Source: Candidatus Aenigmatarchaeota archaeon
GTDB taxonomy: Archaea > Aenigmatarchaeota > Aenigmatarchaeia > CG10238-14
DNA: 64,000 nucleotides
Reading direction: 5' to 3'
Assembly (NCBI GenBank): GCA_044343545.1
Contig: JAWBZR010000003.1
Span: forward strand, 10,320 to 74,319
Shown here: positions 28,676-54,612 of the stretch, piece by piece
Layout: each line of letters starts with the position of its first letter
Numbering within the stretch: the first letter of the stretch is position 1
Notes under the pieces: generated by a model
The model's database searches: none
What the model was told of the DNA's origin: nothing
The model's input: the letters and a program-made list of their open reading frames with translations, nothing else
Position numbers and translations under genes: made by a program

Positions 28676-29347
28676 CTAAATAGGAACTCCTCTTGAACAA
28701 CGATAACAATCAAAATTGTTTCCACATGGTTCTCGTACACAAATACCAAACCCACAGCTTTTAGAACATTCACCTAATGTTTGAAGACCACAAAAGCTAC
28801 AAGGTACTATAGTTGGAGGTGTCGGTGTTGTAGATGTGATTATAGTAGGTCTAGTGGTTGTTGGTTGAGTTGTTGTGGGTAGGGTGGTTGTTGGTTGAGT
28901 TGTTGTGGGTAGGGTGGTTGTTGGTTGAGTTGTTGTGGGTAGGGTGGTTGTCGGAAGTGTAGTAACTGTATAAGCAACATAAGGAGAATAGTAAAACGTG
29001 AGTGTTTGAGAATAACCTTTGTTAAAAACCATTAATTTATGCATACCTTCACTTAAACTCCAACTTGCTATAACTCTACCAACATTGTTTGGTTGAATAC
29101 TTCCACCATCAATACTAAAACTTACTTGTGTGCCGTCTACAACAATCTTTAAATTATTCGCTAAAATAGGTTCGGTTCCCAAGTTAGAAATAACTATTAT
29201 ATTTCCAGATACTTCCAATATTTGAAATGCATTTTGTGTTTGCCTTTGTGCTATGTTGTTGATAAAAAAATATGCGCTCCCAGCTAAACCTATGGTTATA
29301 ACTACGAGTAAAAGTGTGGCTATGACGCTTGAAATACCTTTTTTCAT
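28676..29347 (-). CDS. archaeal type IV pilin-like protein (class III signal peptide) with Thr/Pro repeats and Cys-rich C-terminal domain
   Basis: MKKGISSVIATLLLVVITIGLAG fits the KG|IS FlaFind-type cleavage motif plus hydrophobic stretch (DUF361-like). (TTLPTTTQPTTT)n. C-terminus CSFCGLQTLGECSKSCGFGICVREPCGNNFDCYRCS. Confidence 0.6.
   Translation of the reverse strand: MKKGISSVIATLLLVVITIGLAGSAYFFINNIAQRQTQNAFQILEVSGNIIVISNLGTEPILANNLKIVVDGTQVSFSIDGGSIQPNNVGRVIASWSLSEGMHKLMVFNKGYSQTLTFYYSPYVAYTVTTLPTTTLPTTTQPTTTLPTTTQPTTTLPTTTQPTTTRPTIITSTTPTPPTIVPCSFCGLQTLGECSKSCGFGICVREPCGNNFDCYRCSRGVPI
28854..28947. repeat. tandem repeat, 30-nt period, 3 copies (TTLPTTTQPT linker)
   Basis: Unit gtggttgttggttgagttgttgtgggtagg begins at 28854, 28884 and 28914. 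Confidence 0.75.
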
Positions 29348-33540: not shown

Positions 33541-34002
33541 ATGGACGTGTTTTTAAGATTGTTAGATGTCTTGCTGGAAGCAAAAGTAGAATTTACTATA
33601 ATGTCTCATGAACCTGTAACTACTTCAGAAGAAGCTGCAAAAGTGAGAGGAACTACTCTTGAAAGTGGTGCTAAAGCAATAATAGCAAAGACAGACAGAT
33701 TTTTTATGCTTGTCTTGCCTTCCAACTTGAAAGTGGATTCAAAGAAAATTAAAAAGATTTTTGAAACCAAGAATTTTAGATTTGCCACGGAAGAAGAATT
33801 ATATAAGCTGACATCATGCAAAAAAGGCGCTGTTCCTCCGTTTGGTTTTCTTTTTGGTTTGGACACTATTGTTGATGAAGAATTGTTGAAACAAAAGGAA
33901 ATAAATTTTAATGCTGGAAGAAATGACAAATCAATTAACATGAAACTAGAAGATTATCTGAAAATTGTAAAACCAAAAATAGAAAAATTCAGCCAAGATT
34001 AA
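33541..34002 (+). CDS. YbaK/ProX-family aminoacyl-tRNA deacylase
   Basis: Conserved ESGAKAIIAK ... CKKGAVPPFGF (GxVxPFG hallmark of YbaK/ProX). Start moved to internal ATG MDVFL. Confidence 0.7.
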   Translation: MDVFLRLLDVLLEAKVEFTIMSHEPVTTSEEAAKVRGTTLESGAKAIIAKTDRFFMLVLPSNLKVDSKKIKKIFETKNFRFATEEELYKLTSCKKGAVPPFGFLFGLDTIVDEELLKQKEINFNAGRNDKSINMKLEDYLKIVKPKIEKFSQD

Positions 34003-35465
34003 CGTTTTTTATTGCTCATTGCCCTTTCTCTTATTTCCTTTATGACTTTCTTTCTTATTTTTTCGTCTATGTCTCTTTTCGGCTTCACAGGCAGCTCGAC
34101 TTGCTTTTCATCTTCTGGTTCTTTAATTTTTATCTCGACGAAATCTTCCGCATAATCTTTTTCTTCTTCAGGAAATGCGTATACCGAGCCTTTTGATTTT
34201 TTCTTTTCGCTTATTAGAGGTAAAGCTGCAAGTGATACTAGCAACACTATAGGTATCGCAGCAAGATACCAATAATTGCTTGCAAGTTGCCCTGCTCTTG
34301 CAAAGAATCCTGTAGATTCTTGTTTTTGTTGAATAGTTGTAGTTGTTGTTGCTAAAGTTGTTATGACTTTTTCTGTTACAGCCAAAGTCATTGATTTTTC
34401 ATAATTCACTCCAGTTTTTGCAACTAGCTTGAATACATATGATTCTGGTTTAGTGTTTTCTGGAACTTTAATAGTAACTGTAAGGTTTACAGTTTCGCCT
34501 TTTCTTATTGTTTGCACGGATGATGGTGTTATGGTAAACCAATTTACATCCAATCCGGCAACTTGAAAATCGACATTATTCAAATCTTTAGCTGCATAAA
34601 AACTTCCCTTGATGGTTTTTTCTCCTCCTGTTTGGACTTGAATGAACGATGGAAAATCATAAAAACCTGTAGACTTTCCTGAGCTACTGCTACTGCTACT
34701 AGACCATCCACTGCCACTACTGCTACTGCTCGAACCTGAAGTACCGCTTGAAGGTGTATTTTGAATAATTTCCACGGTTGTTGTAGTTGTTGTTAACACT
34801 AAGGTTGTTGTAGTTGTAGTTGCTACAGTCCTGCAATAACCTGTAGTTGGTGAACCAACCCATTCACAACCAGGTATTAAATTACATGTGGCAAAACTCC
34901 TTCCATTACAATTGGAAGTTTGCTGGAGAGTTGTGGTGGTTGTTAATTGAGTTGTTGTAGGAGATGTTGAAACATATGTAGTTGAAGTAGTTGTCGTAGG
35001 AGATGAAGACGAGCCCGTACAGTAGCCTGATATGCCTATGGATATCCAAATACAACCGGCTGCTCTACAGGCTGAAGAAGTTGTATAACTTGAGCAATCT
35101 CCTCCCTGCTGAAGAGTGGTGGTAGTGGTTGTGCTATAAGATCCTGAAGTTGCATAAACATAACATTGCAAGCTTGCAGAAATATTTGTTACAGCATCTG
35201 CATAGGTGACAAGCACTTGCGCCGCCATATTTGATGGCGCTCTAAATTCTACAAGTTGAGACGCACCGGGAGCTAATTGAAAATTATTTGGAGAAGCTGA
35301 AATAGGCGTTCCTAAAGTGTTTATAAAAACTCTTACTGGCACGAAATCTCTGTTGTAAAACCTGTAGTTGCCGGGAGATTCTGGAGTACCGCAAGATACA
35401 GTAACTGCTAAAACTGGATGTAGCATTGCCAAAATCACGAAAATTAATGAAAAATACTTTTTCAT
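33999..35465 (-). CDS. Thr-rich surface protein with 'AVTVSCG' N-domain, two 4-Cys modules and C-terminal TM (family B, copy 0)
   Basis: Signal MKKYFSLIFVILAMLHPVLA|VTVSCGTPESP. Modules DCSSYTTSSACRAAGCIWISIGISGYC and CNGRSFATCNLIPGCEWVGSPTTGYC. Poly-Thr/Ser linkers. TM AAIPIVLLVSLAALPLI + KKKSKG tail. Confidence 0.55.
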   Translation of the reverse strand: MKKYFSLIFVILAMLHPVLAVTVSCGTPESPGNYRFYNRDFVPVRVFINTLGTPISASPNNFQLAPGASQLVEFRAPSNMAAQVLVTYADAVTNISASLQCYVYATSGSYSTTTTTTLQQGGDCSSYTTSSACRAAGCIWISIGISGYCTGSSSSPTTTTSTTYVSTSPTTTQLTTTTTLQQTSNCNGRSFATCNLIPGCEWVGSPTTGYCRTVATTTTTTLVLTTTTTTVEIIQNTPSSGTSGSSSSSSGSGWSSSSSSSSGKSTGFYDFPSFIQVQTGGEKTIKGSFYAAKDLNNVDFQVAGLDVNWFTITPSSVQTIRKGETVNLTVTIKVPENTKPESYVFKLVAKTGVNYEKSMTLAVTEKVITTLATTTTTIQQKQESTGFFARAGQLASNYWYLAAIPIVLLVSLAALPLISEKKKSKGSVYAFPEEEKDYAEDFVEIKIKEPEDEKQVELPVKPKRDIDEKIRKKVIKEIRERAMSNKKR

Positions 35466-35541
35466 TTTCTCACCACTGATTTATCACTTTAAAGAAATAA
35501 GGATTTATATTTTATTTGAAAATTTTATAGAAATTTTTTTT

Positions 35542-35994
35542 CTATTTTAACCAACAATACCAATCTGCCTGCTTAAAGTCTTTCGGCCTATCGAACCCTT
35601 TTATGTAAGGTTTTATATCTATGACAGGTGTTTTGTCTATTGCATCCAGACCTTTAACATACAATACATTTTTTTGCACTTTTTGCAGCCTTACCAATCT
35701 TAGCCCAATCTTATTTGGCCTATATTGACTTCTTGAAGCAAATACACCTACTTTTGGTAGCTCTTTTACTGTTATTGGTCCGGGATATGTTTCTATTTCT
35801 ATTTTTTTGGCTTTGTGAAGATAATATATTACAAATATATGAGAAAATTTTTCTATACCTTTCAGGCCCGATTCATATTTTTTGTTAATCACTATCTTTG
35901 ATATGGTTTTTGTTGCCAACCCTTTTTCGCAAGCTTCCCATGCTTGCTGAGGTGTTTTATAGCTTGAAGAAACGTAACCTATTGGAGTTTTCAT
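35542..35994 (-). CDS. trmO: TsaA/YaeB-family tRNA (m6t6A37) methyltransferase TrmO-like protein
   Basis: N-terminal MKTPIGYVSSSYKTPQQA. RPNKIGLRLVRL and GLDAIDKTPVIDIKPY match the TrmO/UPF0066 signature (RPNPIGLS..; DGTPVLDIKPY). Confidence 0.7.
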   Translation of the reverse strand: MKTPIGYVSSSYKTPQQAWEACEKGLATKTISKIVINKKYESGLKGIEKFSHIFVIYYLHKAKKIEIETYPGPITVKELPKVGVFASRSQYRPNKIGLRLVRLQKVQKNVLYVKGLDAIDKTPVIDIKPYIKGFDRPKDFKQADWYCWLK

Positions 35995-36061
35995 AAAAAC
36001 AATATTTTAGTAAAAAATAAAAAAATAAAAAGGCCAAGAGAGTTACAAAGTTCTAGCAACT

Positions 36062-37108
36062 TTAGATTGCTTTACCAAATACCATTATTTGGCCCTGTGT
36101 GAAGGTACCAATGCATGGCATTGGATACGTTAACTTGAATTCTACTTCTGCCAATCCACCGTTTGTTAATATGTTATCTGCTGGTGATGGTGATAATCCA
36201 TTGCCTCTGAATGTCAATGGACTACCTCCATAGCATGTGTTTTCAGTCCAGCTAATTACACATTGTGCGTTTTGATTGTATTCTGTCATTTGTCTCCAGC
36301 CATCTTCTCCTTGCCATTGAGAGCCAGACCAACCTCTGTATTTCATGTATGTCTCAACATCTATCTTGTTTGTATCTGGACATTTTGATGCACCGTTCGG
36401 ATCATACAAATCTGTAGCGGCTATATACATCCACATGTTAACGCCGCCTTCTGCTGTGTTTCTTACTTGTAGTCTATTCAAAGAGTGCACTGTTCTTTCT
36501 TCTGGTGTATCAGCTCCATATGGTAGAGGTTCAAATCTTATTGGTTGTCCGTCATTTGTGGACACAGATAGAGACAATACTGGATTGAAATACCATGTCT
36601 CTACGTGTGTTCCGTCTGTTGGCACATTAGCAGAGTTGTAGGCTGTTAGCTTGACTTCGGTATAGCCATACCATTGTGGCTCTACCGTTATCAAGCATTC
36701 AAATGCTTTATCTGTTTCAAGATTTACCTCGCCCATGCCGTTGCATGTCATGTTTTTTGGCAAGCTAACTGGGTTGCACACTACTTCTGGGTTACCTCCA
36801 ACTCTTGCCTTTAGCCAACCAATATCCAATGCACCATTAGGATCCCTTACTATGGCAAAAAGTTGAATTTGCTCGCCTGTAAAGGCATAAGAGCTTACTC
36901 TGTAGTCAAATGGGTTTATGCTTGCACCGGATCCTAAAGATGCATTTGCTCCTATTGTTATATTTCTGTCATATACGCAGATTCTTGGTGTTTGGTCGCC
37001 AGGGCCTGCGCTTGCTCCCACGCCGCCGACTGCTACATCAGCAGCTACTAGGGAAACTACCATAGTTGCTAGAACCAAAGATACTACCAATGCTGCTAAA
37101 TATTTCAT
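36062..37108 (-). CDS. secreted protein, family A copy 1 (paralog of 39721-40761); visibly higher G+C than surroundings
   Basis: Sec signal MKYLAALVVSLVLATMVVSLVAA. Shares with the 39721 ORF the blocks CNGMGEVNLETDKAFECLITVEPQWY / PIRFEPLPYG / NTAEGGVNMWMYIA / C-terminal YPMPCIGTFTQGQIMVFGKAI. Confidence 0.55.
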   Translation of the reverse strand: MKYLAALVVSLVLATMVVSLVAADVAVGGVGASAGPGDQTPRICVYDRNITIGANASLGSGASINPFDYRVSSYAFTGEQIQLFAIVRDPNGALDIGWLKARVGGNPEVVCNPVSLPKNMTCNGMGEVNLETDKAFECLITVEPQWYGYTEVKLTAYNSANVPTDGTHVETWYFNPVLSLSVSTNDGQPIRFEPLPYGADTPEERTVHSLNRLQVRNTAEGGVNMWMYIAATDLYDPNGASKCPDTNKIDVETYMKYRGWSGSQWQGEDGWRQMTEYNQNAQCVISWTENTCYGGSPLTFRGNGLSPSPADNILTNGGLAEVEFKLTYPMPCIGTFTQGQIMVFGKAI

Positions 37109-37321
37109 CTTTGGTTCACCCCTAATAAGAAATAGATGAGATATTAATTATTTAAACTTAATTCGACATAAAATTTAAGATTTTAGCTTATAAATAATAA
37201 AAAACTCATTTCTTAAACAAATAAGCATTTTTAACACTTTTTATTAAATTTATTTCTATTTTTTTTGAGTTTTTTTATATTATATATGAAAAATCTGTAA
37301 CCACTTTACAGTTGCTATTAA

Positions 37322-37978
37322 TTATTGACATTTCGATACAAACGTGGAAAATATGCAAAATCCTAGTATTGATCTGCCTAGGCACTTTCTCTCACATACA
37401 TTGCTGCAACATTCGCTGTTACTTTGACAAAATTGTCCTTTTATTAAACAAGATTGAATTTGTTGTGTGGTTGTTGTTACAGTCGTTAAAGTTGTTTGTG
37501 CCATATAATCCTTGTTAACACATCTTCCCATTACCATATCGCCTATCCATTTACAGTCATGGCTGGAGACGCATAGAGAAAAAGATCTTTTATTGCAAGA
37601 AGATATCGTGGTTGTAGAAAACTGGGTAGTTTCGGTTGTTGTAAATACAGTTGTTTGAGTTGCAATCTCTTCTGACTCATTTGTTATTTTATAGGCTCTA
37701 AACAAACTTGCACCAAATACAATATCTCCAGGTAAAACCCTAAAACCAAATGAGCTACCAACATCGTTTGCATACTTACATACCCCAGGAGTACAAGTCA
37801 TTACCAAACGAGGTGGTGTTATATTTCTACTCATAGAGTCTACTTCTTCATATAGCTCACATCTTTCAGCATCATTAGGGCAAACAAAGTATGGATGAGA
37901 TGTGTAAGCTGAATATATTTCTGTCTTTTTTGCAAACACTAGTGGTATTAGCAATATTAAAATCAATAATTTTTTCAT
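37322..37978 (-). CDS. Thr-rich secreted protein with 4-Cys module (family B, copy 1)
   Basis: Signal MKKLLILILLIPLVFA. Module SSCNKRSFSLCVSSHDCKWIGDMVMGRC plus a second module CLIKGQFCQSNSECCSNVCERKC. Poly-Thr linkers. Confidence 0.5.
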   Translation of the reverse strand: MKKLLILILLIPLVFAKKTEIYSAYTSHPYFVCPNDAERCELYEEVDSMSRNITPPRLVMTCTPGVCKYANDVGSSFGFRVLPGDIVFGASLFRAYKITNESEEIATQTTVFTTTETTQFSTTTISSCNKRSFSLCVSSHDCKWIGDMVMGRCVNKDYMAQTTLTTVTTTTQQIQSCLIKGQFCQSNSECCSNVCERKCLGRSILGFCIFSTFVSKCQ

Positions 37979-38033
37979 AGTCTTTTATTGGATGATGAGA
38001 TTTTTAATGAGATAAGGAATTAAAATAGAAAAT

Positions 38034-38429
38034 TCAGATATTTTTGTTTACAAATTTTTTTGCTTCTTTTATAAAATACTCTGCCTCCTTGATCAAAAGC
38101 TCTACTTCATCCTTCTCTATTACAACATTTAGATAATAGTCAGCACTTTCTCTTAATTCAAAAGATTTTCTTAATATTTTACCCATTTTTTTATCTGCTT
38201 TTTTTTCTTTAACTATTTTTGAGCCAAACTCGGAAATTAACCCTGCGTGTGTTTTGGCATCATATCCGATTGCATTGAGCATAGCTTTGGCAGCATAAAA
38301 CAAAGAGTAATATATTCTATTTGCAGCATCCTCTATTAAATCTTTGCTTAAGAGCAATTTCGCAGCTGACAGCCTTTTTTCTGCCTTCTCAATTTCTCCT
38401 TTTATTATATCTTTTGTAATTTCATTCAT
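38034..38429 (-). CDS. HEPN-domain protein (toxin component of HEPN/MNT pair)
   Basis: All-helical, 131 aa; AKAMLNAIGYDAKTHAGLISEFG and LRESADYY resemble PF05168 HEPN. Overlaps the upstream MNT gene by 8 nt. Confidence 0.55.
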   Translation of the reverse strand: MNEITKDIIKGEIEKAEKRLSAAKLLLSKDLIEDAANRIYYSLFYAAKAMLNAIGYDAKTHAGLISEFGSKIVKEKKADKKMGKILRKSFELRESADYYLNVVIEKDEVELLIKEAEYFIKEAKKFVNKNI

Positions 38430-38721
38430 TGTAAATCACCCTGCCTTTGATTATTTCAAGCACAAAAGGATCTTTTTTATTTATCTTTTTGTAAAAATCA
38501 TCTTTGGTAAAAAATTTTAGAGAAACAACTTTACCATACTTGAATAATATCTTATCAGCAATTTTTTCAGCCTTTTGCTTAATTTTTTTATTATTAGAAA
38601 TTATTGCTAAATCTATATCCGAATCAAGCCTATAGTTGCCCCTGGCAACAGAACCGAACAATATTATAGTTGCCTTTAATCCTTCAAACTCTTTTATTAT
38701 GTTTTTATGATATTTTAGCAT
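38422..38721 (-). CDS. minimal nucleotidyltransferase (MNT antitoxin component)
   Basis: ILFGSVARGNYRLDSDIDLAII is the GSxxxG..DxD Pol-beta-type NTase motif. Confidence 0.7.
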   Translation of the reverse strand: MLKYHKNIIKEFEGLKATIILFGSVARGNYRLDSDIDLAIISNNKKIKQKAEKIADKILFKYGKVVSLKFFTKDDFYKKINKKDPFVLEIIKGRVIYNE

Positions 38722-38745
38722 AATTATATTTTTTTACTTTAATAA

Positions 38746-39597
38746 TTAAAAAACACATATCGTCTTCCATTCCAAGCAAACAAGTCTTAACCATCTATTA
38801 CAAACAGTAGAGCAAATTGTTGTGGTTGTTGTTGGGGTTGTAACAGTTGTGGTTGAAGTGGTTGTGGTTGTGTTTTGAGTTGTAACAGTTGTGCTTGAAG
38901 TTGAAATGCATTTACCAAATCTTATATCACCTGTCCATCTACAATTTGAATTTAACTGACATTGCCAAAAATTCAAAGACTGACAAATATTTGTTGGTGT
39001 AGTGATTGTTGTTGGCGTTATATTTGTGTTTTGAGTTGTTGACGTCATTGTTGTTGTCGTGGTTGTTGTCTGTGAATTTTCTGGAACCGTAGTTGTTGTT
39101 CCATAAATACTTGCACAATAACCTGTAAACATATTGCCTATCCATTTGCAACCTGGCAAAGTGGCACAGTTATAAAATGATCTTCCGTTGCAATCATATA
39201 CCACTTGAGGTGTCGTTGTTGTGGTTGTAGTAGTTGTCATCACTGGAGTAAAACTTCCTTCTGGCAAAGCATAATATTTGCATTCTAAAGAAGAAGAAAA
39301 ACCATTTCTTGTATCTGTCACAAAAACAAACAAAGTAGCAACCGTTCCAGAATATGATCTAAAAGATATTACTTTGCTTTCATTCGGCTCTAAATAAAAA
39401 AGATTTGTTGGATATATGTTGATCAAAGAAAATTTATTATCGATATAAACCTTAACAGTAAAATTTTCTGGATTAGTAAAAATATAATCACCTGTAAAAA
39501 CATTATTTGGCATATATGGTCTGCCGCATGAAACAGTAACTGCAAAAACATCTTTGATTAAAAAAAGCATAAAAATAATTATCAGAATTTTTTTCAT
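38746..39597 (-). CDS. Thr-rich secreted protein with 'AVTVSCG' N-domain and two 4-Cys modules (family B, copy 2)
   Basis: Signal MKKILIIIFMLFLIKDVFA|VTVSCGRPYMP (paralogous to the 33999 ORF N-domain, incl. SLECKYYA vs SLQCYVYA). Modules CNGRSFYNCATLPGCKWIGNMFTGYC and CQSLNFWQCQLNSNCRWTGDIRFGKC. Confidence 0.5.
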   Translation of the reverse strand: MKKILIIIFMLFLIKDVFAVTVSCGRPYMPNNVFTGDYIFTNPENFTVKVYIDNKFSLINIYPTNLFYLEPNESKVISFRSYSGTVATLFVFVTDTRNGFSSSLECKYYALPEGSFTPVMTTTTTTTTTPQVVYDCNGRSFYNCATLPGCKWIGNMFTGYCASIYGTTTTVPENSQTTTTTTTMTSTTQNTNITPTTITTPTNICQSLNFWQCQLNSNCRWTGDIRFGKCISTSSTTVTTQNTTTTTSTTTVTTPTTTTTICSTVCNRWLRLVCLEWKTICVF

Positions 39598-39720: not shown

Positions 39721-40761
39721 TTAAACTGGTCTTGCTATTATTAAAATACTGCCTTGATCAAATGTTCCTATGCATGGACTTGGATAATGTATCTTGAAGT
39801 AAATGTTTGCTGTTCCTTGGTTTGTCAAAATGTTTTGCATTGGTGCATCTGTTGGTACAGGCATGCCATCAAAGCAGTTGAACAAGCTGCAGCCTTTATT
39901 TGGATCATATTTTCTCATCCAAAGCCATGGTGTTTGTAAAGTTCCTGAAACAGCTCTATATGCTATACCTGTATCAGGATCTTCATCTTCGACTTGAGTA
40001 TTTCCTATCGGTTCAACATCTCTATGCCATTCTAAAACATTTGTTGTTGGGCAAATGCTTACACTGCCGGTTGATGTCAACCCTGGACCTTCACCTGCTA
40101 TCCATACCCACAAGTTAACACCTGCTTCTGCTGTATTTTTCAAAATGATATAGTTCTCGCTATCTGCCCAATCTCCTGGATTAGCTGGTTTGAATCTTAT
40201 TGGTTGATTGTCGCTTGTTGTCAATCTCATAGATATTTGAGGATTGAAATCCCAAACTTCCTCATGCGTGCTGTTAACAAAAGACATTCCTGAAACATCT
40301 AGAACAGATATCTTCACTTTGCTATTCAAATACCAAGATGGTTGTACTGTTAAAATGCATTGATAAGATCTATCTGTAGCTGGATTAAAGTTACCTAAAC
40401 CGTCACAGTTAGGTATATTTGTGATTTGAGTGCAAATAACACCTGTTGGGTCTGGCCCAAAAACTTTAACACTACCGATGTTTATCCATCCATTTGGATC
40501 TCTGACTGTTACATTGAATTTAATTTGCTCCCCTGTAAATGCATATTGGCCTGTTCTTAGATTTAAAATATTTATTCCGTCAACTACCACTTCTCTATTT
40601 TTCACGCATATTTGTTTCGGTGCAATAGCTGGACCTGCTGTAATGTTCACTGAACTTAGAACTGTTTGATAGTTTTGTGCATGCAAAAGTGGCAATAGTA
40701 GCTCTACTGCTACTAATAATAAAATTATTTTATATGATTTTTTCAATTTATCACCCCGCAA
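39721..40761 (-). CDS. secreted protein, family A copy 2
   Basis: Sec signal KSYKIILLLVAVELLLPLLHA. Conserved blocks CDGLGNFNPATDRSYQCILTVQPSWY / PIRFKPANPG / NTAEAGVNLWVWIA / C-terminal YPSPCIGTFDQGSILIIARPV. Confidence 0.55.
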   Translation of the reverse strand: MRGDKLKKSYKIILLLVAVELLLPLLHAQNYQTVLSSVNITAGPAIAPKQICVKNREVVVDGINILNLRTGQYAFTGEQIKFNVTVRDPNGWINIGSVKVFGPDPTGVICTQITNIPNCDGLGNFNPATDRSYQCILTVQPSWYLNSKVKISVLDVSGMSFVNSTHEEVWDFNPQISMRLTTSDNQPIRFKPANPGDWADSENYIILKNTAEAGVNLWVWIAGEGPGLTSTGSVSICPTTNVLEWHRDVEPIGNTQVEDEDPDTGIAYRAVSGTLQTPWLWMRKYDPNKGCSLFNCFDGMPVPTDAPMQNILTNQGTANIYFKIHYPSPCIGTFDQGSILIIARPV

Positions 40762-41135: not shown

Positions 41136-43115
41136 TTAAATTCTATTTTGAACCAACCAATTTACCAACTTATTAAAAAGCAAGTTGCCTGCATCGTTCA
41201 AATCTTTTGGTGTGCTTGAAGCGAACCAACCAACATACGCATAATTGTTTGCGACGAACAAAGTGGATGATTGATGATTTCCAGAGTCGGCCAAGTCGGT
41301 GACGGAGGAAGCTAAATTGTAATCTTGTACGACATTGAATTTTGGTTTATTCATGATATTTACAAATCCAGATAAACCTTGAGTTATTTGGTGAGTTTTA
41401 GTTATGTATAAAGATTCGGATCTGACAAATCCCACATATCCTTTCGTATATCCAAATCTCCAACCTGCATTAACATAAGGTTGATCTGCTATTTCCAAGA
41501 ATGGAATGCCCGACTTGTGTGCAGAAAATGCTGGATGAGATCCATCTATCTTGCAAGCTCTTAGCTCATCGCTGCAAGCTATGAGTTTGTAATTTCTTAT
41601 TTCGCTTCCCCAAGACCAATAACCTTTAGCGTCAACAGTCCAACCTCTCTCTTCAAGCCACCTTATCGTATCTTTTTCTATTCCGTGATTGCATTCGTCT
41701 GTTCTGCAAATGAATGCTATATCTCTATAAACAGGTAAATCTATTTTGAAAAACCACGATACCTCAGGTAATTCGTTTCCATTTAGATCTTTACACCTTG
41801 CATAAACTACATAAGTATTGTTGGGTAATTCGAAATCAATTTGGTATTCATGCAATGGAAGATTGTATGGGAATTCGAAATCCATTGACTCGTAAGGTTT
41901 TCTGACATTCAAGGAAAATTTGCACACCGTCTTTTCATCAGTTAATATTCTTATCAAAGGTTTTCTTGTATTCACGTTACCTATAGGAGAATATTCTAAG
42001 ATTTTTGGTAATTTAACTTCACTCTCTATTGATTCTGAAGTTAACCATTCCAATATTCTATTAAATATTGTCGCACCACTATCTGTCAAACCTTCGCTTC
42101 CTATTTCGTTAAACCAACCAACATACGCATAATTGTTTGCGACGAACAAAGTGGATGATTGATGATTTCCAGAGTCGGCCAAGTCGGTGACGGAGGAAGA
42201 TAATAAATCATCCGGAATTACATTGAACTTGCTTCCTATCAACACGTCCACGGAACCTGAAAATCCACTGGTTATTTGATGATTTTTAGTTATGTAGAGT
42301 TCTTCATTGTTTGTCAATCCCACATATCCTTTCGTATATCCAAATCTCCAACCTGCATTAACATAAGGTTGATCTGCTATTTCCAAGAATGGAATGCCCG
42401 ACTTGTGTGCAGAAAATGCTGGATGAGATCCATCTATCTTGCAAGCTCTTAGCTCATCGCTGCAAGCTATGAGTTTGTAATTTCTTATTTCGCTTCCCCA
42501 AGACCAATAACCTTTAGCGTCAACAGTCCAACCATTCTCTGCCAAGAATGATATCATAGATTTTTCTATTCCGTGATTGCATTCGTCTGTTCTGCAAATG
42601 AATGCTACCTTACCTAATTTTTCTCTAATTTTAAAAGTTGTGTTAGCATAATATCCCTTGTTTTCAGAAAACAAAATTACTCTTGCTTCATAGTTGCCAA
42701 ATTGCAAATCTTCAAAGGACCATAATATTTCCAATTCAACATGTTTAGTGATATCGTATCCGTAATATCCATAACCGTATCCGTAATCTAAATTTTCACG
42801 CTTCAATTCCACTGAAACAAATCTTTTATCTTGCTGCGAACATTCACTATGAAATCCTTCATCTAAACTTGAAAGAATGCACAAACTAGTTATATTATTG
42901 TGCTCTTCTAAACCTCTTATTTCAATCGAGATATTTTCTATTAAATTCCATTCGTCTATGTTTTCTATTTTCACGTTGAGCTTGACTAAACTACCCTTGA
43001 AGTAAGTTTTCTTATCAGTAAAAATTTGAATGTTAAAGGCCGTTGTGCTTTCTGAGAATATTATAAGTAGAATTAAAATCGAAGTTGAAAGAATAGGTAA
43101 AAATTTTTCATTCAA
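41136..43115 (-). CDS. secreted protein with two copies of a ~200-aa Cys-containing domain (recent internal duplication)
   Basis: Signal ILSTSILILLIIFSESTTA. Domain FICRTDECNHGIEK..GWTVDAKGYWSWGSEIRNYKLIACSDELRACKIDGSHPAFSAHKSGIPFLEIADQPYVNAGWRFGYTKGYVG occurs twice, nearly identical. Confidence 0.55.
   Translation of the reverse strand: MNEKFLPILSTSILILLIIFSESTTAFNIQIFTDKKTYFKGSLVKLNVKIENIDEWNLIENISIEIRGLEEHNNITSLCILSSLDEGFHSECSQQDKRFVSVELKRENLDYGYGYGYYGYDITKHVELEILWSFEDLQFGNYEARVILFSENKGYYANTTFKIREKLGKVAFICRTDECNHGIEKSMISFLAENGWTVDAKGYWSWGSEIRNYKLIACSDELRACKIDGSHPAFSAHKSGIPFLEIADQPYVNAGWRFGYTKGYVGLTNNEELYITKNHQITSGFSGSVDVLIGSKFNVIPDDLLSSSVTDLADSGNHQSSTLFVANNYAYVGWFNEIGSEGLTDSGATIFNRILEWLTSESIESEVKLPKILEYSPIGNVNTRKPLIRILTDEKTVCKFSLNVRKPYESMDFEFPYNLPLHEYQIDFELPNNTYVVYARCKDLNGNELPEVSWFFKIDLPVYRDIAFICRTDECNHGIEKDTIRWLEERGWTVDAKGYWSWGSEIRNYKLIACSDELRACKIDGSHPAFSAHKSGIPFLEIADQPYVNAGWRFGYTKGYVGFVRSESLYITKTHQITQGLSGFVNIMNKPKFNVVQDYNLASSVTDLADSGNHQSSTLFVANNYAYVGWFASSTPKDLNDAGNLLFNKLVNWLVQNRI
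41225..41716. repeat. direct repeat copy 1 (intragenic, ~490 bp)
   Basis: Blocks 41225-41311 and 41431-41645 are identical to 42113-42199 and 42319-42533 (offset 888). Intervening blocks are diverged. Confidence 0.8.
42113..42604. repeat. direct repeat copy 2 (intragenic, ~490 bp)
   Basis: See copy 1; mosaic identical/diverged pattern. Confidence 0.8.
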
Positions 43116-43314: not shown

Positions 43315-44616
43315 TCAACTGAATGAATATACATAAATGTTCTCGTGTACTTGACTTAACGTGCAATTACCTCTCGTGTAAACTATAGTTATGTTGTTTT
43401 GTTTCAAAAAGTTTATGTTGGTACAATTTTTATTTATAAAATCTTCTGCTTTTCTTACTTTATCTAGTTCCGACTCTACAGGACCGAAAGGCATAACTGC
43501 ATACACAGGTTTTTCAGCAACAAAAGCAAATGCTCTTGCCTTCCATGGATCTAATATTGCTTTCCCTTGTAGATTATATCTTATCCACAAAAAACTCTCG
43601 TAATCGTGATCATCAATTATCTTGTAATGTTGCTGCTTCGATATTGCATTAACAGATAAAACTAAAATAATTGCTAATAACATAGTCATTAATTTTTTTC
43701 CAAACTTTGCTATACTGTAAGAAGCTACTATATTCATGAAAAGTATGAGGGGTATGTATATTCTTATGTATGGAATTAGCAATGTTTGACCAAACCTTGC
43801 ATGTAAAACTATCAAAAATATTAAAAACATACTTGTGTACGCGATATCTTTATGCTTTGTTTTAAGAATAAAATAGAAACCTATAACAAAAAACACTGTT
43901 TGTATATAACCATATATTTGTGGAAGTTGTCTTAAACTTATCCAAAAATCGAACTTTATTGCATTTATACCTTTATTTAATTCATTGTAATAGTTTGGTA
44001 AAGATAGCAATATTGCTAAAACTACAAAAAGTATGAGTTGTTTGTTTTTTGCCATCAAAAAATTGAAAAACAGATAAATCATCAAAACCATAGCTGATGG
44101 TGGATGAGCTAAAAGGAGGAAAAGAAGCGAAGAAAACAGTATTGTCATTTTACCTTCTTTTGTTGCTCTTATTGATAGAGGAATGAATATTAAACTCAAA
44201 TTAACAGGCATAAGATAAACTGGTCCTCCCATAGTAGCGTTGCTCGGAATCAAAGCTGTTAAAACACTTGCTATTAATGCCTCCTTTTTTCCGAACAATC
44301 TTGTAGTGCATGCATAAACAGATAAAACTGAGATCGCATGAAAAATGGCTGGTAATATTATCCATTGTGTGGCTTCTAAATTTAATGCTTGAAAAGAAGC
44401 TAAAAGATAATGCCAAACAGGCTCCATACTCAGCTTGAAAGGTTTGTTATCAAACCAATTTATTGGTGAAAAATACAAAATCATCTTTGCTTCTGCTATG
44501 TGAAACCATTCATCAACATGAAAAGGATAGGGGTAATTTATATGCGGATAGTAAGTAAGTGAAAAAGCTAATAGAATTGAAAAAAACAAAATAACACTTT
44601 CTTTTGATGATTTCAT
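43315..44616 (-). CDS. polytopic membrane protein, GT-C-fold glycosyltransferase-like (PMT_2/ArnT-like)
   Basis: ~11 TM helices. First extracytoplasmic loop HVDEWFH resembles the DE(x) catalytic loop of GT-C mannosyl/arabinosyl transferases. Confidence 0.4.
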   Translation of the reverse strand: MKSSKESVILFFSILLAFSLTYYPHINYPYPFHVDEWFHIAEAKMILYFSPINWFDNKPFKLSMEPVWHYLLASFQALNLEATQWIILPAIFHAISVLSVYACTTRLFGKKEALIASVLTALIPSNATMGGPVYLMPVNLSLIFIPLSIRATKEGKMTILFSSLLFLLLAHPPSAMVLMIYLFFNFLMAKNKQLILFVVLAILLSLPNYYNELNKGINAIKFDFWISLRQLPQIYGYIQTVFFVIGFYFILKTKHKDIAYTSMFLIFLIVLHARFGQTLLIPYIRIYIPLILFMNIVASYSIAKFGKKLMTMLLAIILVLSVNAISKQQHYKIIDDHDYESFLWIRYNLQGKAILDPWKARAFAFVAEKPVYAVMPFGPVESELDKVRKAEDFINKNCTNINFLKQNNITIVYTRGNCTLSQVHENIYVYSFS

Positions 44617-46896: not shown

Positions 46897-47793
46897 ATGA
46901 AAAGCAAAATAATTTTGTTCCTTTTTTTGCTTTTTACTTTGAAAATTGCTTATGCGGCTGACAAGAATGTTTATACTAGCATTTATTTACTTAATCTTGG
47001 AAAGTTTGATATATCAACAGGCTCATTCACTGCTGACTTTTATCTCAATTTTGATTGTGAAAACGAATGCCCGCAAATAGATTTTGAATTTATGAATGGC
47101 AGAGCAAACAGTTTAGATAAATTAATTGACACGCCAAAATCAAAAACATACAGAATACAAGCTAATCTTGTTAGCCATATAGATTTGAAAAAATTTCCGT
47201 TTGATAATCAAACATTAAAGATAATAATAGAGGATAAAACCAAAACTATAGATGAACTTGTATTTGTGGCAAAAAATGAATATAGTGGTATTGATCCTTC
47301 CATTGTTTTCATAGGTTGGGAAATGGGTCAATGGAAAGCTTATTCAACAGAGCATTATTATGATGTGTATAACGAAACTTATTCGCAATATGTATTTGAA
47401 ATACCTATTTACAGAATAACAATAAATGCTGTTTTCAAAACATTTTTGCCAATAATATTCATTATATTGATAATGCTTTCCAGTTTTGTATTAGACCCGG
47501 ATAAGATAACTACAAGATTGGGAATGGTCGGCTCTGCTTTAGTTGCATCTGTAATGTATCATGTCTCTATAGCAAATCAAATACCACCTGTAAGCTATTT
47601 AACATTTGTGGACAAATTCATGATTTTGACTTATTTTATAACACTATTGAGTTTTGGATTTAACGTGTTTTTGCTCGAGCTAAATGAAGAAAAAAAGAAA
47701 AAGCTTGTAAATAAATTGCACAAATATACAGAATTTACTATGTTTATAGTTGTTCCGATTCTTTATGTTTTGTTATTCCTGCTGTTTTTGTGA
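46897..47793 (+). CDS. pentameric ligand-gated ion channel (Cys-loop/pLGIC superfamily) homolog
   Basis: Signal peptide + ~170-aa extracellular domain + 4 TM. Pre-M1 YRITINAVFKTFLPIIFIILIML. M2 TRLGMVGSALVASVMYHVSI. M2-M3 loop NQIPPVSYLTFVDKFMILTYF (cf. GABA-A LPKVSYVKAIDIWM). M3, loop and M4 follow in canonical order. Confidence 0.6.
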   Translation: MKSKIILFLFLLFTLKIAYAADKNVYTSIYLLNLGKFDISTGSFTADFYLNFDCENECPQIDFEFMNGRANSLDKLIDTPKSKTYRIQANLVSHIDLKKFPFDNQTLKIIIEDKTKTIDELVFVAKNEYSGIDPSIVFIGWEMGQWKAYSTEHYYDVYNETYSQYVFEIPIYRITINAVFKTFLPIIFIILIMLSSFVLDPDKITTRLGMVGSALVASVMYHVSIANQIPPVSYLTFVDKFMILTYFITLLSFGFNVFLLELNEEKKKKLVNKLHKYTEFTMFIVVPILYVLLFLLFL

Positions 47794-47816: not shown

Positions 47817-48395
47817 TTAATCATCCAAATTAAATGTTTTTAGAAATCTTTTCTTCACAAATTTTGGATATTTTTTTATGTATTCTTTCATTCTTTTCTT
47901 GTCAATTTTTAGTTTAGAAATTATTTTCTTATCAAGTGGTTGCTTGAAATAAATTAAATCTATTAGTGTTTTTTCTTTGTCTGAAACTGGAATAAGAAAA
48001 TTGTCGTAGTTGATTAGCTCGTATCCGAAAAAATATTTTTTGTTTATTCTTCTCACTATGACATTTGTGCCAAAAACCTCTCTCTTCCCACTTCTTATTT
48101 TTTTAGGTGTTACTATTATTGTGTTTGTTTCTTGCTCCCAAAGATTATGTATGCTTAAAGCAGCTTGCAAACCTATATAAGATGGTCTTATGGCAAACAC
48201 AATTAATGTAGGATCATCGTATAAAGTGTAAAATCCTTTTTCAATTCTTTTGATTTTGTCTTTTTTCAACAAATAATTTAACAAGACATTTGCATAATTT
48301 TCGTTTCTTGTCAAGAGTATTATATCTCTAGTACTCACCACAGGATTTTTCTTGAATAAATCCATTATTCGTGACAAATATTTTATTTTGCCCAT
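47817..48395 (-). CDS. AbiEi-like (COG5340) antitoxin/transcriptional regulator
   Basis: N-terminal wHTH-like KYLSRIMDLFKKNPVVSTRDIILLT plus a C-terminal domain. Overlaps the upstream AbiEii-like gene by 13 nt. Confidence 0.45.
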   Translation of the reverse strand: MGKIKYLSRIMDLFKKNPVVSTRDIILLTRNENYANVLLNYLLKKDKIKRIEKGFYTLYDDPTLIVFAIRPSYIGLQAALSIHNLWEQETNTIIVTPKKIRSGKREVFGTNVIVRRINKKYFFGYELINYDNFLIPVSDKEKTLIDLIYFKQPLDKKIISKLKIDKKRMKEYIKKYPKFVKKRFLKTFNLDD

Positions 48396-49039
48396 ATTTC
48401 TATCGCCTTTATTAAATCTTCCAGCTTTGGAACGGCACCTGAAATTATCAAAGTAGGTAAATTCTTTTCGTCTAACGGTGGTTTGAAATTTTTTAAAAGG
48501 TTGTTTATCAATTTTGAAATTTCTTTTTTTTCTTTTACGTAATTTAGCAAAAAGTATATATCGTAAAGATCTCTTACTTTTTGTCTTTTTTCATATGCCT
48601 TTATTTTTTCCTTAATTATTTCTTCTGGAGTTAAAGTGTAAACAATAATAAATGTTCCGTCAGATAATTCAAACTCTTTTGAAACATAGTTTTTTATGTT
48701 TTCAAAAACAACTTCGAATCTAATTATTGCATTGTTGTAGGCAAATGCTGAATATATGGAATTTTCTGTTTCTTTGAATTTTTGCGTTTGGAAGCCAATC
48801 TTTTCTAGATTTTCCCTGAATTTTTTTAATTGAGTTGAATTTTTTAGTTTTTTCGGTAAATATACATCTATATCTTCTGAAAATCTATTGCCAGAATAAC
48901 ACCTCCATATTGCTGTGCCGCCGTGTATGATAGGAGTAGTTAATGTTTTGTACATCTCAATTACCAATAAATCTTGGGCTAAAGCTATGTCTTTATGATG
49001 CTTTTTTTTGAGTTTTTTTTCTATTGGAAGTATGACCAT
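48383..49039 (-). CDS. AbiEii/DUF1814-family nucleotidyltransferase (type IV TA toxin)
   Basis: IHGGTAIWRCYSGNRFSEDIDVYLP matches the GGTAL...R.SEDIDF signature of AbiEii. Confidence 0.6.
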   Translation of the reverse strand: MVILPIEKKLKKKHHKDIALAQDLLVIEMYKTLTTPIIHGGTAIWRCYSGNRFSEDIDVYLPKKLKNSTQLKKFRENLEKIGFQTQKFKETENSIYSAFAYNNAIIRFEVVFENIKNYVSKEFELSDGTFIIVYTLTPEEIIKEKIKAYEKRQKVRDLYDIYFLLNYVKEKKEISKLINNLLKNFKPPLDEKNLPTLIISGAVPKLEDLIKAIEIWAK

Positions 49040-49463: not shown

Positions 49464-50606
49464 TTATAATGCTTTCTGTTTTTTATAAAATTCATGTTTT
49501 TTATATGAAATAAATTTTTTAAAATTATGAATGCCGTCATCATTACTTGTAATATTTTTAGATTTAAAAAATTTCATAGTTTTTCTTAATTTTGTTAACT
49601 CAAATAATTTAATAAATCCACCTTTTTTAAGAGATTGGTACCAAATTTTAACTTTAAAATTTGTATCATAAAACATCCAAAATTGTAATAAAAAATTATA
49701 TATTATATAATCAAATATCCACATCAACTTATCTTTTATTAATAAATTTTTATTACAAAAAATTTTTTTTGCTATATAAATATTCGATAAAAAACTGATA
49801 ATAAAAGTGAAAAATATCATACCAAGTTTTTTATCAAGTTTTGAACAAAATTTGAAAAAAATCCTAAACATTTTTACATGTTTTTCAGAAAAATATAAAG
49901 GATTACCATCTATTTTATATACTTTATTGCCATAATTTAAAATTAATAGTAATTTGTAACCAAACTGATAAGAATCTATAAATGTTTGATTAATTACATT
50001 TTTTAATCTTTTTTTAAGATAATAATTTGAATTATGAAATATAATAACTTTATTTAAGTGCTGCGGTTTTTCTTTAGTAAAGTAATGCCAATGTATTATA
50101 CCTATTGGAGTTACATAATTTTTATTGAAAAATCTTATTAATATAGATTGAAATCTTTTTGACGGATAATCTTCTTTTCTTACTATTGTAAATACATTAG
50201 ATTTAAATGATTTATTTTTGCTTAAATTGTATAAACTTTTATCATTTATATTTTCATCATCTTCTATAATAAATATCCATCTATATTTACATAAAGAAAA
50301 TCCTATATAATAAAAAAATACAGACGTCCCTAAAGGAGGAAAATTAAATATTCTTATTTTATTTTCTTTTTCTAAATGTTTTTTTATTTCATAATAAAAT
50401 TCTAATTTGCTATTATCTAAAATTATTATTTCATCAAAATATTTTTTTAATTTTTTAGCTAATTTTATTACATTTTCCGGTTTATTCATCGAAATAATAA
50501 TTGCAGATACTTTATTCATAAAGATACCTCGATATACTTTCATTATATAAACTTTTAACTTCATCTGATGACAAACTTTTATTATAAATTCTAATTTCAC
50601 CGACAA
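49464..50606 (-). CDS. glycosyltransferase family 2-like protein (start uncertain)
   Basis: VSAIIISMNKPENV..FDEIIILDNS resembles the GT2 N-terminal Rossmann segment. Extremely AT-rich. Likely true start at internal MNKVSAII. Confidence 0.4.
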   Translation of the reverse strand: MSVKLEFIIKVCHQMKLKVYIMKVYRGIFMNKVSAIIISMNKPENVIKLAKKLKKYFDEIIILDNSKLEFYYEIKKHLEKENKIRIFNFPPLGTSVFFYYIGFSLCKYRWIFIIEDDENINDKSLYNLSKNKSFKSNVFTIVRKEDYPSKRFQSILIRFFNKNYVTPIGIIHWHYFTKEKPQHLNKVIIFHNSNYYLKKRLKNVINQTFIDSYQFGYKLLLILNYGNKVYKIDGNPLYFSEKHVKMFRIFFKFCSKLDKKLGMIFFTFIISFLSNIYIAKKIFCNKNLLIKDKLMWIFDYIIYNFLLQFWMFYDTNFKVKIWYQSLKKGGFIKLFELTKLRKTMKFFKSKNITSNDDGIHNFKKFISYKKHEFYKKQKAL

Positions 50607-52878: not shown

Positions 52879-53794
52879 CTTTTTTAATTTTTAAAAGTAA
52901 ATTAAATGCATCTATAGTTCCAGAAAAATATGCTTTTATTAATATCAACTTTTTTTTTAAACTAAAATCAGATTTAAGTAAAATATTTATAATATAGAAT
53001 AACAAAATTATCCAATTAAAAATTGAAACAAAAATAATAAATTCGTATAAATTCGAATATTTAAAATGAAAAATTATTCTGTTTCTAGCAGTAAAATATG
53101 TTCTACTATATGTTTCAAAACCTGTAAATTTTGTTCTTTTAGCATTATGCCAAATTTTAGCGTCTGTATTACAAAAAATTCTAAATTTTGATTGTTTAAC
53201 TCTTTGACAAAAATCTGCTTCATCATAATGGATAGGGAATTCTTTATGATTTAATAATCCAACTTTATAAAAAACTTTCCTTCTTACCATAAAAGCATTT
53301 GGAAAATCGTCAGATGGTATTAATTTTTTTATTTTACCATTATCTATTTTATCTTTGTAGATAAAAAGTGTTGAAGATGTTACCATATTTCTTCTTATAC
53401 CAGCACACCAAATTCTTTTTGGATCAGAAAGATAATACATAGTTGGCCCTAATACTCCTATCATATTATCTTTTTCCATTGTTTTAACAAGTTCAAAAAT
53501 ACAATTCTTATCTATTACATTATCATCATCTATTAAAAAAACATAATCACCTACTGAATTTTTAATACCAATATTTCTAGAATTTGCCAAAAGAAGATTT
53601 TTTTTATTTCTAATAATTTTTACAGATGGATACTTTTTTCTTATTAAATCATATGTTCCATCAGTAGAGGCATCATCTATGACAATTATTTCTAATTTAT
53701 TTTTAGGATAATTACTATTTAATATTGATTCAATTAATGATAGTAGTTCGTTCTTACGGTTATAAGTCGGGATTACTACGGACACTTTTTTCAT
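52850..53794 (-). CDS. glycosyltransferase family 2
   Basis: VSVVIPTYNRKNEL; VIDDASTDGT; DxD FLIDDDN; C-terminal TM helices. Confidence 0.75.
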   Translation of the reverse strand: MKKVSVVIPTYNRKNELLSLIESILNSNYPKNKLEIIVIDDASTDGTYDLIRKKYPSVKIIRNKKNLLLANSRNIGIKNSVGDYVFLIDDDNVIDKNCIFELVKTMEKDNMIGVLGPTMYYLSDPKRIWCAGIRRNMVTSSTLFIYKDKIDNGKIKKLIPSDDFPNAFMVRRKVFYKVGLLNHKEFPIHYDEADFCQRVKQSKFRIFCNTDAKIWHNAKRTKFTGFETYSRTYFTARNRIIFHFKYSNLYEFIIFVSIFNWIILLFYIINILLKSDFSLKKKLILIKAYFSGTIDAFNLLLKIKKGDNSNGNKL

Positions 53795-54612
53795 AATTTC
53801 ACCTTACTCGCTAAAGAACCAAAGACAACGGAAAAATATTCCATTAACTTAAAAAAAATTAAACTACTAGCTAATATAGGCTTTGAATAAAATTTTTTAT
53901 TTTTTAAAAATATCGAAAATCTATAAAAAATACTTGTCTGCTTTTTTGCATAATCACCAAATTTATTTTTATAAACCGACAATGTTTTTCCATAATAGAA
54001 TTTCTTTTTCATCCACTTCAAAAAAGAAAAATTATATTCATTATGAATTATTTCACTGGAAATTCTGTAATTCACTTTATATCCTAACTTTTCTATTTTC
54101 TGTGGCAAAGTGTTTTCTTCAAAAAAAACAACACTTTCATCAAAACCATTGACTTTAATAACTAAATCTTTAGGAAAGAACCTTGCAGATTCTATAGGAG
54201 TATTAGCATAAAAACTTCTTTCAAAATCTCTTACTCTAACCCAGTATGATCTGCCTATAGATCTTTCTGGAATTATTATACCACCTATTTTTTCTTTTGA
54301 ACATAAATCAACACAATCTTTAATTACATTTTTTGTTAATTCCATATCAGAATCTATAAAAAGCAAATATTCACCTTTTGCTTTTTTAGCCCCAAAATTC
54401 TTCTGCTCACTCCTTTCAGATGCTTTGATCTGAAAAACTTTTCTAGTATATTTTCTAGCAATCTCCACAGTTCTATCCTTTGAAAACTTGTCTACAACGA
54501 TTATCTCAATATTCTTGTAGCTTTGATTCTTAACAGACTCTAAACATCTTTCTAAAGTCTTTTCAGAGTTAAAAGTTGGTATAATAACCGAAACTAGAGA
54601 ATCATTAAACAT
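53791..54612 (-). CDS. glycosyltransferase family 2
   Basis: VSVIIPTFNSEKTLERCL; IIVVDKFSKDRT; FIDSDM (DxD). Confidence 0.75.
   Translation of the reverse strand: MFNDSLVSVIIPTFNSEKTLERCLESVKNQSYKNIEIIVVDKFSKDRTVEIARKYTRKVFQIKASERSEQKNFGAKKAKGEYLLFIDSDMELTKNVIKDCVDLCSKEKIGGIIIPERSIGRSYWVRVRDFERSFYANTPIESARFFPKDLVIKVNGFDESVVFFEENTLPQKIEKLGYKVNYRISSEIIHNEYNFSFLKWMKKKFYYGKTLSVYKNKFGDYAKKQTSIFYRFSIFLKNKKFYSKPILASSLIFFKLMEYFSVVFGSLASKVKL

Follow-up and report, generated by a model that had tools for sequence, protein, structure and literature searches.

The 64,000-nucleotide stretch examined here (the window; positions 10,320 to 74,319 of contig JAWBZR010000003.1, assembly GCA_044343545.1, from a Candidatus Aenigmatarchaeota archaeon) encodes three proteins, B0, B1 and B2, that carry a small module with four cysteines set between threonine-rich runs. 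A regular-expression search of all six frames of the window recovered five copies of this module across the three proteins, with the motif C-x7-C-x5-C-x-W-x-G-x4-G-x-C and a length of exactly 26 residues in each copy. The three open reading frames (ORFs), with their translations in amino acids (aa), and the module copies that they contain are as follows.

33999..35465, minus strand: B0, ORF and translation, 488 aa
35019-35096, minus strand: B0 module copy 1, aa 124-149, CSSYTTSSACRAAGCIWISIGISGYC, 32.7 bits, the C-x8-C-x4-C variant
34833-34910, minus strand: B0 module copy 2, aa 186-211, CNGRSFATCNLIPGCEWVGSPTTGYC, 52.3 bits
37322..37978, minus strand: B1, ORF and translation, 218 aa
37520-37597, minus strand: B1 module, aa 128-153, CNKRSFSLCVSSHDCKWIGDMVMGRC, 53.2 bits
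38746..39597, minus strand: B2, ORF and translation, 283 aa
39115-39192, minus strand: B2 module copy 1, aa 136-161, CNGRSFYNCATLPGCKWIGNMFTGYC, 57.8 bits
38908-38985, minus strand: B2 module copy 2, aa 205-230, CQSLNFWQCQLNSNCRWTGDIRFGKC, 55.2 bits, a conserved 'LNFWQCQ' subtype

An initial annotation of this region had described the module as recurring five or more times in three proteins. All five peptides that it quoted are present on the minus strand between positions 34700 and 39250, and the recurrence in B0, B1 and B2 stands; the six-frame search of the window, however, matched these five copies only and no sixth. The shared four-Cys pattern was also recovered, although the actual spacing is tighter than had been proposed. 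The sole copy to deviate from it is B0 copy 1, in which Cys2 is shifted by one (C-x8-C-x4-C) and Ser replaces Gly after W-x, so that the Trp-x-Gly said to follow the third Cys each time holds for four copies. The variant is kept in the B0 orthologues on loci L001, L003, L004, L006 and L023. No match to the pattern arose in 200 nucleotide shuffles of the window or in residue-shuffled B0, B1 and B2 (20,000 shuffles per protein, with Cys, Trp and Gly content kept). Thr/Ser-rich runs bound all five copies, in agreement with the poly-Thr flanks described earlier, and the N-termini of all three proteins are hydrophobic and signal-peptide-like.

The B0 polypeptide consists of a signal peptide, an immunoglobulin-like (Ig-like) N-domain, a module, a Thr linker, the second module, a Thr/Ser/Gly linker, a second Ig-like domain, a further Thr linker and a transmembrane (TM) helix (aa 398-418) followed by a charged cytoplasmic tail; weak NPCBM_assoc/FixG_C Ig-like matches cover aa 297-393. 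B2 has a signal peptide, an Ig-like N-domain (aa 20-118) homologous to that of B0, two modules each followed by a Thr linker, and a C-terminal mini-module of 20 aa. In B1, a Cys-containing N-domain follows the signal peptide, and a single module stands between two Thr linkers ahead of a C-terminal knottin-like Cys-rich segment, a layout shared by the orthologues on L001, L006, L007, L008, L023 and L026. An AlphaFold2 (AF2) model of full-length B2 assigned a predicted local distance difference test (pLDDT) score of ∼90 to the N-domain, 67-86 to the modules and <50 to the linkers, and the Thr-rich linkers are accordingly modelled as disordered. The B2 N-domain gave weak PapD/MSP-like Foldseek matches and carries a conserved Cys pair (C24 and C106). 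All module carriers that we collected have signal-peptide-like N-termini, and B0 has the C-terminal TM helix as well; from the signal peptides, the Thr-rich linkers and the B0 membrane anchor, we conclude that the module is extracytoplasmic.

Conservation and distribution of the module

Fifteen homologues of B2 were obtained, all from Candidatus Aenigmatarchaeota wherever named, and together with the five window copies they contain 33 instances of the motif, every one of which (33/33) is exactly 26 residues long. Pooling all fetched proteins and loci gave 84 unique archaeal copies, again nearly all of exactly 26 residues, with the consensus C-[SN]-G-K-[SN]-[FY]-x2-C-x3-[PS]-[NG]-C-[KE]-W-[VI]-G-D-x-[RK]-x-G-[YKH]-C. 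All copies have Cys1 (84/84), whereas Cys3, Trp and the last Gly each occur in 82/84, as does the C-x-W element as a whole. Across nine B2 orthologues, the mean pairwise identity was 0.64 and 0.65 for the two modules versus 0.61 for the folded N-domain, and the linker between the modules was 35 to 64 aa long. B2 copies 1 and 2 each represent a position-specific subtype of their own, kept across the orthologues.

The module was found with several different partners, including the Ig-like 'VTVSCG' N-domain, a 'GYGYGYG' domain, a right-handed β-helix (protein P0030) and a transglutaminase core (P0037; L018). Its position varies as well: it may stand right after the signal peptide (P0024, L018), recur internally in tandem, or form the last residues of the protein at the end of a long flexible linker (P0013-17, P0026-30, L017, L019, L022, L025). 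The recurring unit proposed in the initial annotation is therefore real, being conserved in orthologues and mobile among unrelated architectures, and we conclude that the module is a genuine mobile domain.

The profile search that the initial annotation had proposed was run with a HMMER profile built from 27 module sequences, and 1.84 billion representative proteins were searched exhaustively. Only 32 proteins matched at an expectation value (E) ≤1e-3, 13 of them at E≤1e-10, and the majority of the 32 belong to the same archaeal type of poly-Thr protein. A hand-made degenerate DNA pattern of the module, which had no match in shuffles of the window, identified 8 stretches in 185,579 species-representative genomes, all within five Candidatus Aenigmatarchaeota metagenome-assembled genomes (MAGs). 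The same pattern found 16 stretches in 241 million metagenome records, all on low-GC contigs (29-38%) and encoding the same protein types, and 2.9 million viral contigs contained none. Among the weakest matches of the profile search were a few non-archaeal-looking proteins with a looser four-Cys/Trp pattern (P0034, P0035, P0039, P0041, P0042, P0043 and P0044). P0039, which looks bacterial, combines a dockerin with remote module-like repeats, the sole such coexistence, and P0044, a remote match of the archaeal profile, has 13 tandem four-Cys repeats. Thus, the module is almost confined to the Aenigmatarchaeota lineage.

Pfam and NCBIfam models gave no match over the modules in B0, B1 and B2, over the isolated modules or over the remote matches. 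Since no model of either library matched the module, the earlier statement that the module is no named Cys domain held up; EGF, which that statement mentioned, has six Cys and the module four. Several candidates were rejected individually. EGF-like and knottin or inhibitor cystine knot (ICK) domains require six Cys, with a CC doublet for ICK, and matched no module consistently in Pfam; the trefoil, toxin and gallidermin families were chance matches of single module members; and the fungal carbohydrate-binding family CBM1 had no Pfam match. The narrow archaeal profile found among PDB sequences only an irrelevant partial match to ATP synthase subunit p18, and P0044 found only a weak match to midkine. 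Literature searches on PSI domains in archaea or prokaryotes and on Aenigmarchaeota surface or cysteine proteins yielded no description of the module. We conclude that the module is an undescribed, lineage-restricted domain family, accompanied by two further mini-modules in the same proteins, and that a small disulfide module carried by a mucin-like stalk is, as a general design, already well known.

Predicted fold and resemblance to the PSI domain

Structure prediction, another suggestion of the initial annotation, was carried out with AF2 on a 27-sequence module alignment and gave a helix at positions 10-15 and strands at positions 19-22 and 29-32 (pLDDT 84.3). The predicted helix bears Cys2 and the strands of the hairpin bear Cys3, Trp and Cys4, and the same helix and hairpin appear in both copies of the full-length B2 model. 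The predicted shape of the module is, in short, a helix packed on a β-hairpin.

The motif of the module resembles the core of the PSI domain ('...C..C....pgCgWC....grC'), a family that the initial annotation had not taken into account, and this likeness prompted a series of profile tests. These used a broad profile of module copies that includes remote ones (A4), a narrow archaeal profile (A3) and a PSI alignment (A5) of nine sequences, all of which score above the Pfam gathering threshold as PSI or PSI_integrin. When A4 was compared with 177,635 distinct PDB sequences (E≤10), the one match was the PSI domain of Semaphorin-1A (E=0.28), in the expected register. Profile-profile alignment of A4 with PSI by hhalign extended over 29 columns (P=6e-4, probability 28%) and placed the four module Cys on PSI Cys1, 3, 4 and 6 and the module C-x-W on the PSI 'C-g-W'. 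Column-shuffled profiles reached the A4-PSI score in 0/300 and 1/300 cases, and a control with a Pfam-validated CBM1 alignment remained at the null level (hhalign score 7.6, P=0.19). The remote match P0044 came close to the Pfam PSI model without reaching its threshold (E=2.2e-4, 21.9 bits versus a gathering score of 23.1), and its repeats aligned to the archaeal profile with an hhalign probability of 79%.

One explanation for these results is that the module truly belongs to the PSI superfamily, in a much reduced form, with an ancestry shared with the PSI domains of plexins, semaphorins and integrins; such a relationship would fit either of the functional roles considered below. The single PDB match, the Cys register over 29 columns, the rarity of equal scores among shuffled profiles beside a null CBM1 control, and the position of P0044 as a remote link all point in this direction, and the predicted helix and hairpin are compatible with the PSI core. 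Other comparisons weigh against it. The Pfam PSI model matched neither B0, B1 nor B2 at E≤1, nor any of 27 isolated modules at E≤10, and no archaeal module reached its threshold; a PSI hidden Markov model built from A5 scored the archaeal proteins at noise level (≤5 bits). The narrow profile A3 aligned with PSI over 8 columns only (P=0.018, probability 2.6%), the hhalign probability even for A4 is low, and the P0044 repeats aligned to PSI with P=0.0055 only. Moreover, convergence is plausible for so short a Cys/Trp motif. We therefore regard common ancestry with the PSI domain as unlikely.

Like the archaeal module, PSI (PF01437, PF17205) is a small extracellular Cys-rich module that stands beside Ig-like domains, in its case in surface receptors. 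Both have a conserved 'C-x-W' that opens a β-hairpin and is preceded by a short Cys-bearing helix, the two elements being predicted ones in the archaeal module, and in the profile-profile alignment the four archaeal Cys correspond to those of its two core disulfides. The two also differ. The archaeal module has ∼26 residues and four Cys against ∼50 residues and eight Cys in PSI, so that the eight-Cys pattern C-x5-6-C-x2-C-x6-8-C-x-W-C-...-C-...-C-...-C is unmatched: every copy (84/84) lacks the CxxC, the Cys that follows Trp and both C-terminal Cys, and the C-terminal half of the domain is missing as well. In addition, the W-x-G...G-x-C hairpin of the archaeal module is two residues longer, the module falls below every Pfam threshold, and it is archaeal and flanked by poly-Thr, whereas PSI is eukaryotic and packed against neighbouring domains. 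Judged from these profiles, the likeness appears weak but specific, and it is too weak to class the module as an established PSI domain. It nonetheless suggests that the module is a stripped-down version of a known type of fold and not something without precedent.

In the PSI fold, one or more short helices and a two-stranded antiparallel sheet are knotted by C1-C4 and C3-C6, which are the two internal disulfides in the structures of integrin β3 and Sema4D. Combined with the PSI register of the four archaeal Cys, these predict a pairing of Cys1 with Cys3 and of Cys2 with Cys4, and we infer disulfides as such from the signal peptides, the extracytoplasmic context and the invariant, even-numbered Cys. 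Most probably, then, two disulfides (Cys1-Cys3 and Cys2-Cys4) lock the mini-fold. Four invariant Cys in a very small domain are also typical of many zinc modules, and we considered whether the Cys might instead bind metal in a Zn or Fe knuckle. A zinc ribbon or knuckle requires two CxxC(H) knuckles, whereas no CxxC occurs in any of the 84 copies, in which the Cys are spaced by x7, x5 and x10, and no zinc-finger family was matched consistently across the copies. The module is located outside the cytoplasm, behind signal peptides and on Thr-rich stalks, and its neighbouring domains have conserved Cys pairs of their own (C24 and C106), as is typical of secreted disulfide proteins. Because CxxC knuckles are lacking and the location is extracellular, metal binding is very improbable.

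Neighbouring genes and companion modules

The genes for the three carriers belong to a minus-strand run that comprises, in order, a 659-aa ORF, A1, B2, an MNT/HEPN toxin-antitoxin pair, B1, A2, TrmO and B0. In another Aenigmatarchaeota genome (L001), a 780-kb contig has the same gene order without the toxin-antitoxin pair, and with identical module counts. Further features of this run and the companion mini-modules are listed below.

36062..37108, minus strand: A2, 348 aa, secreted, Cys-containing and lineage-specific; carries no module
39721..40761, minus strand: A1, 346 aa, a paralogue of A2 directly upstream of B2
38034-38721, minus strand: HEPN / minimal nucleotidyltransferase (MNT) toxin-antitoxin pair, between B2 and B1; absent there in L001
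38755..38814, minus strand: B2 C-terminal 20-aa four-Cys mini-module, aa 262-281, CSTVCNRWLRLVCLEWKTIC, a distinct second module type
37328..37450, minus strand: B1 C-terminal Cys-rich segment, aa 177-217, CLIKGQFCQSNSECCSNVCERKC..., a different mini-module with a weak UPF0506 match
41136-43115, minus strand: 659-aa ORF with an N-terminal 'GYGYGYG' domain; no module

A1 and A2, both of them secreted and Cys-containing, flank the module genes and are 34% identical to each other. The 87 homologues of A2 come nearly all from Aenigmatarchaeota, with orthologues up to 84% identical, and A2 had no match in Pfam, NCBIfam or PDB. Close homologues of B2 and A2 are annotated as proteins of Candidatus Aenigmatarchaeota MAGs, one of them 100% identical to the window protein. 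A1 and A2 are candidates for an envelope or S-layer component and, given the conserved neighbourhood, candidate partners of the module.

The second module type, at the C-terminus of B2, has the motif C-x3-C-x2-W-[LF]-R-x2-C-x2-W-x3-C within 20 residues and was modelled by AF2 as a β-hairpin (pLDDT ∼72). It is the best-conserved part of the B2 orthologues (mean pairwise identity 0.74), and tandem copies of it on poly-Thr take the place of the 26-residue module in P0011 and P0012. The C-terminal segment of B1 has a knottin/ICK-like spacing (C-x6-C-x5-CC-x3-C-x3-C...) that is conserved in B1 orthologues, and P0038, which has weak conotoxin/UPF0506 matches, opens with a similar unit. This segment is a possible archaeal knottin.

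Several further features of the window were noted. In the 659-aa ORF, the 'GYGYGYG' domain resembles, as judged by eye, that of the three-module proteins P0013-P0016, and an internal duplication is apparent as direct DNA repeats 888 nt apart with 90-96% identity. Beyond this ORF, a 433-aa multi-pass membrane protein (43315-44616, minus strand) has a weak archaeo_STT3 match and none in Pfam or PDB, and may be a GT-C glycosyltransferase. Near it, three family-2 glycosyltransferases and a LamG-domain protein (49464-54612, minus strand) lie in an island of 21-24% GC; together the two regions could be glycosylation machinery for the Thr-rich proteins, for which they are candidates. An archaeal type IV pilin-like protein (Pilin_N; 28676-29347, minus strand) has a C-terminal stretch rich in Cys, CSFCGLQTLGECSKSCGFGICVREPC. 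A protein of 298 aa with a signal peptide and C-terminal TM helices (46897-47793, plus strand) gave a sub-threshold match to the ligand-binding domain of neurotransmitter-gated ion channels and may be a homologue of the pentameric ligand-gated channels. An AbiEi/AbiEii-type toxin-antitoxin pair is encoded at 47817-49039 (minus strand), and a 119-nt tRNA, presumably intron-containing, was identified by Rfam at 5382-5500 (plus strand) and not reported by ARAGORN. The window is archaeal, and its other genes include those for FtsZ, a Rad50-like ATPase, a branched-chain polyamine synthase and a type IA topoisomerase (Pfam Topoisom_bac/Toprim).

Possible role and comparison with known systems

We think it fairly probable that the module folds autonomously as an extracellular mini-domain of 26 residues, probably with two disulfides, and that it is mobile on Thr-rich linkers and serves most likely, by analogy with known modules, in attachment or targeting. 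The helix and hairpin mini-fold, locked by its disulfides and with the invariant Trp as its core, would hang on disordered and probably O-glycosylated Thr-rich linkers, alone or in tandem, and in very many cases at the very end of the protein. It would bind a protein or glycan on the envelope of the archaeon itself or of its host. Through this binding, the domains of the carriers (Ig-like domains, a β-helix, a transglutaminase-like core) would be tethered to the envelope, a role comparable to that of CBM1, dockerin and SLH modules elsewhere. Attachment or targeting is favoured over spacing because the module is so often the free end of a long flexible linker on unrelated domains.

Four observations weigh against this interpretation. 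The B0 modules sit within the stalk, between two Ig-like domains, an arrangement that fits a spacer as well as it fits binding. A Foldseek comparison of the 34-residue module model with PDB returned noise only. The invariant Trp is probably a core residue rather than part of a binding surface, and the synteny with the A-type proteins is no proof that they interact with the module.

The main rival is that the module is a passive, rigid disulfide 'knob' that stiffens or punctuates a glycosylated stalk, or spaces Ig-like domains, with no ligand of its own. In the stalk of B0 and its orthologues, one Ig-like domain lies distal to the two modules and another proximal to them, ahead of the TM anchor. 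Plexins alternate PSI and IPT domains, and PSI and EGF modules serve in the legs of plexins and integrins; the B0 arrangement recalls the PSI-IPT alternation, and the weak PSI-like profile similarity points the same way. A very small hydrophobic core with tight turns would also require conserved Trp and Gly. However, many carriers end with a module after a long flexible linker and others begin with one behind the signal peptide, and at such a free end a spacer would have nothing to space. The two B2 copies, moreover, are distinct position-specific subtypes conserved across orthologues, which suggests specific surfaces. A spacer role therefore fits the internal B0 copies and not the terminal ones, and as an account of the module we consider it somewhat unlikely.

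As for the stalks themselves, archaeal surface glycoproteins have Thr-rich clusters by the membrane anchor that are considered likely sites of O-glycosylation, while the archaeal O-glycosylation pathway is unknown (PMC6098224). By analogy, the Thr runs of the proteins described here are probably O-glycosylated. We know of no demonstration of glycosylation in DPANN archaea.

For DPANN archaea, Aenigmatarchaeota among them, the presumed way of life is attachment to other cells. As far as we know, the means of this attachment are largely unknown, and most of the surface proteins are called 'hypothetical'. Joining an attachment role to the PSI likeness leads to a bolder proposal, that the module is an archaeal minimal PSI domain, related by ancestry to the core of PSI, which is regarded as an invention of the eukaryotic cell surface, and used on glycosylated stalks by episymbiotic Aenigmatarchaeota for attachment to the host. 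Although we judge this distinctly unlikely, it would, if true, place a root of the PSI modules among prokaryotes and open adhesion between DPANN archaea and their hosts to molecular study. A true PSI link would by itself mean that a classic receptor module of metazoans also occurs in archaea and bacteria; if the link is false, the module would represent a convergent 'small disulfide module on mucin-like stalk' in a thermophilic archaeon. The module is also compact and easily searchable, and it marks a whole set of proteins that Aenigmatarchaeota secrete or carry on their surface; at least two companion mini-modules come with it, and the 84 copies suffice to build a Pfam-style family directly.

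Among known systems, CBM1 (PF00734) offers an analogy in architecture only. It is a four-Cys mini-domain of ∼30 residues with two disulfides, paired C1-C3/C2-C4 as inferred for the archaeal module, and it stands at the very N- or C-terminal end of secreted enzymes, set off by an O-glycosylated linker rich in Ser/Thr. Terminal placement of this kind after poly-Thr occurs in P0026-30, L017, L019, L022 and L025, with a β-helix among the partners, and points to a similar mode of operation without implying family membership. CBM1 is fungal and has no sequence or profile similarity to the archaeal module (the null-level control above), and it folds as an all-β wedge on which three aromatics form a flat face, in contrast to the predicted helix and hairpin with one invariant Trp. 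Dockerin and SLH modules are likewise small, terminal and linker-separated from diverse domains, which they tether to a surface scaffold, as would the archaeal module in the role proposed here. The latter has no Ca-binding EF-hand-like repeats or SLH motifs and no sequence relation to either, and it has no known cohesin-like partner. Finally, the stalk of the haloarchaeal S-layer glycoprotein resembles the present proteins in having Thr-rich clusters beside a membrane anchor (PMC6098224), but in the Aenigmatarchaeota proteins the Thr runs are far more numerous and separate folded mini-domains.

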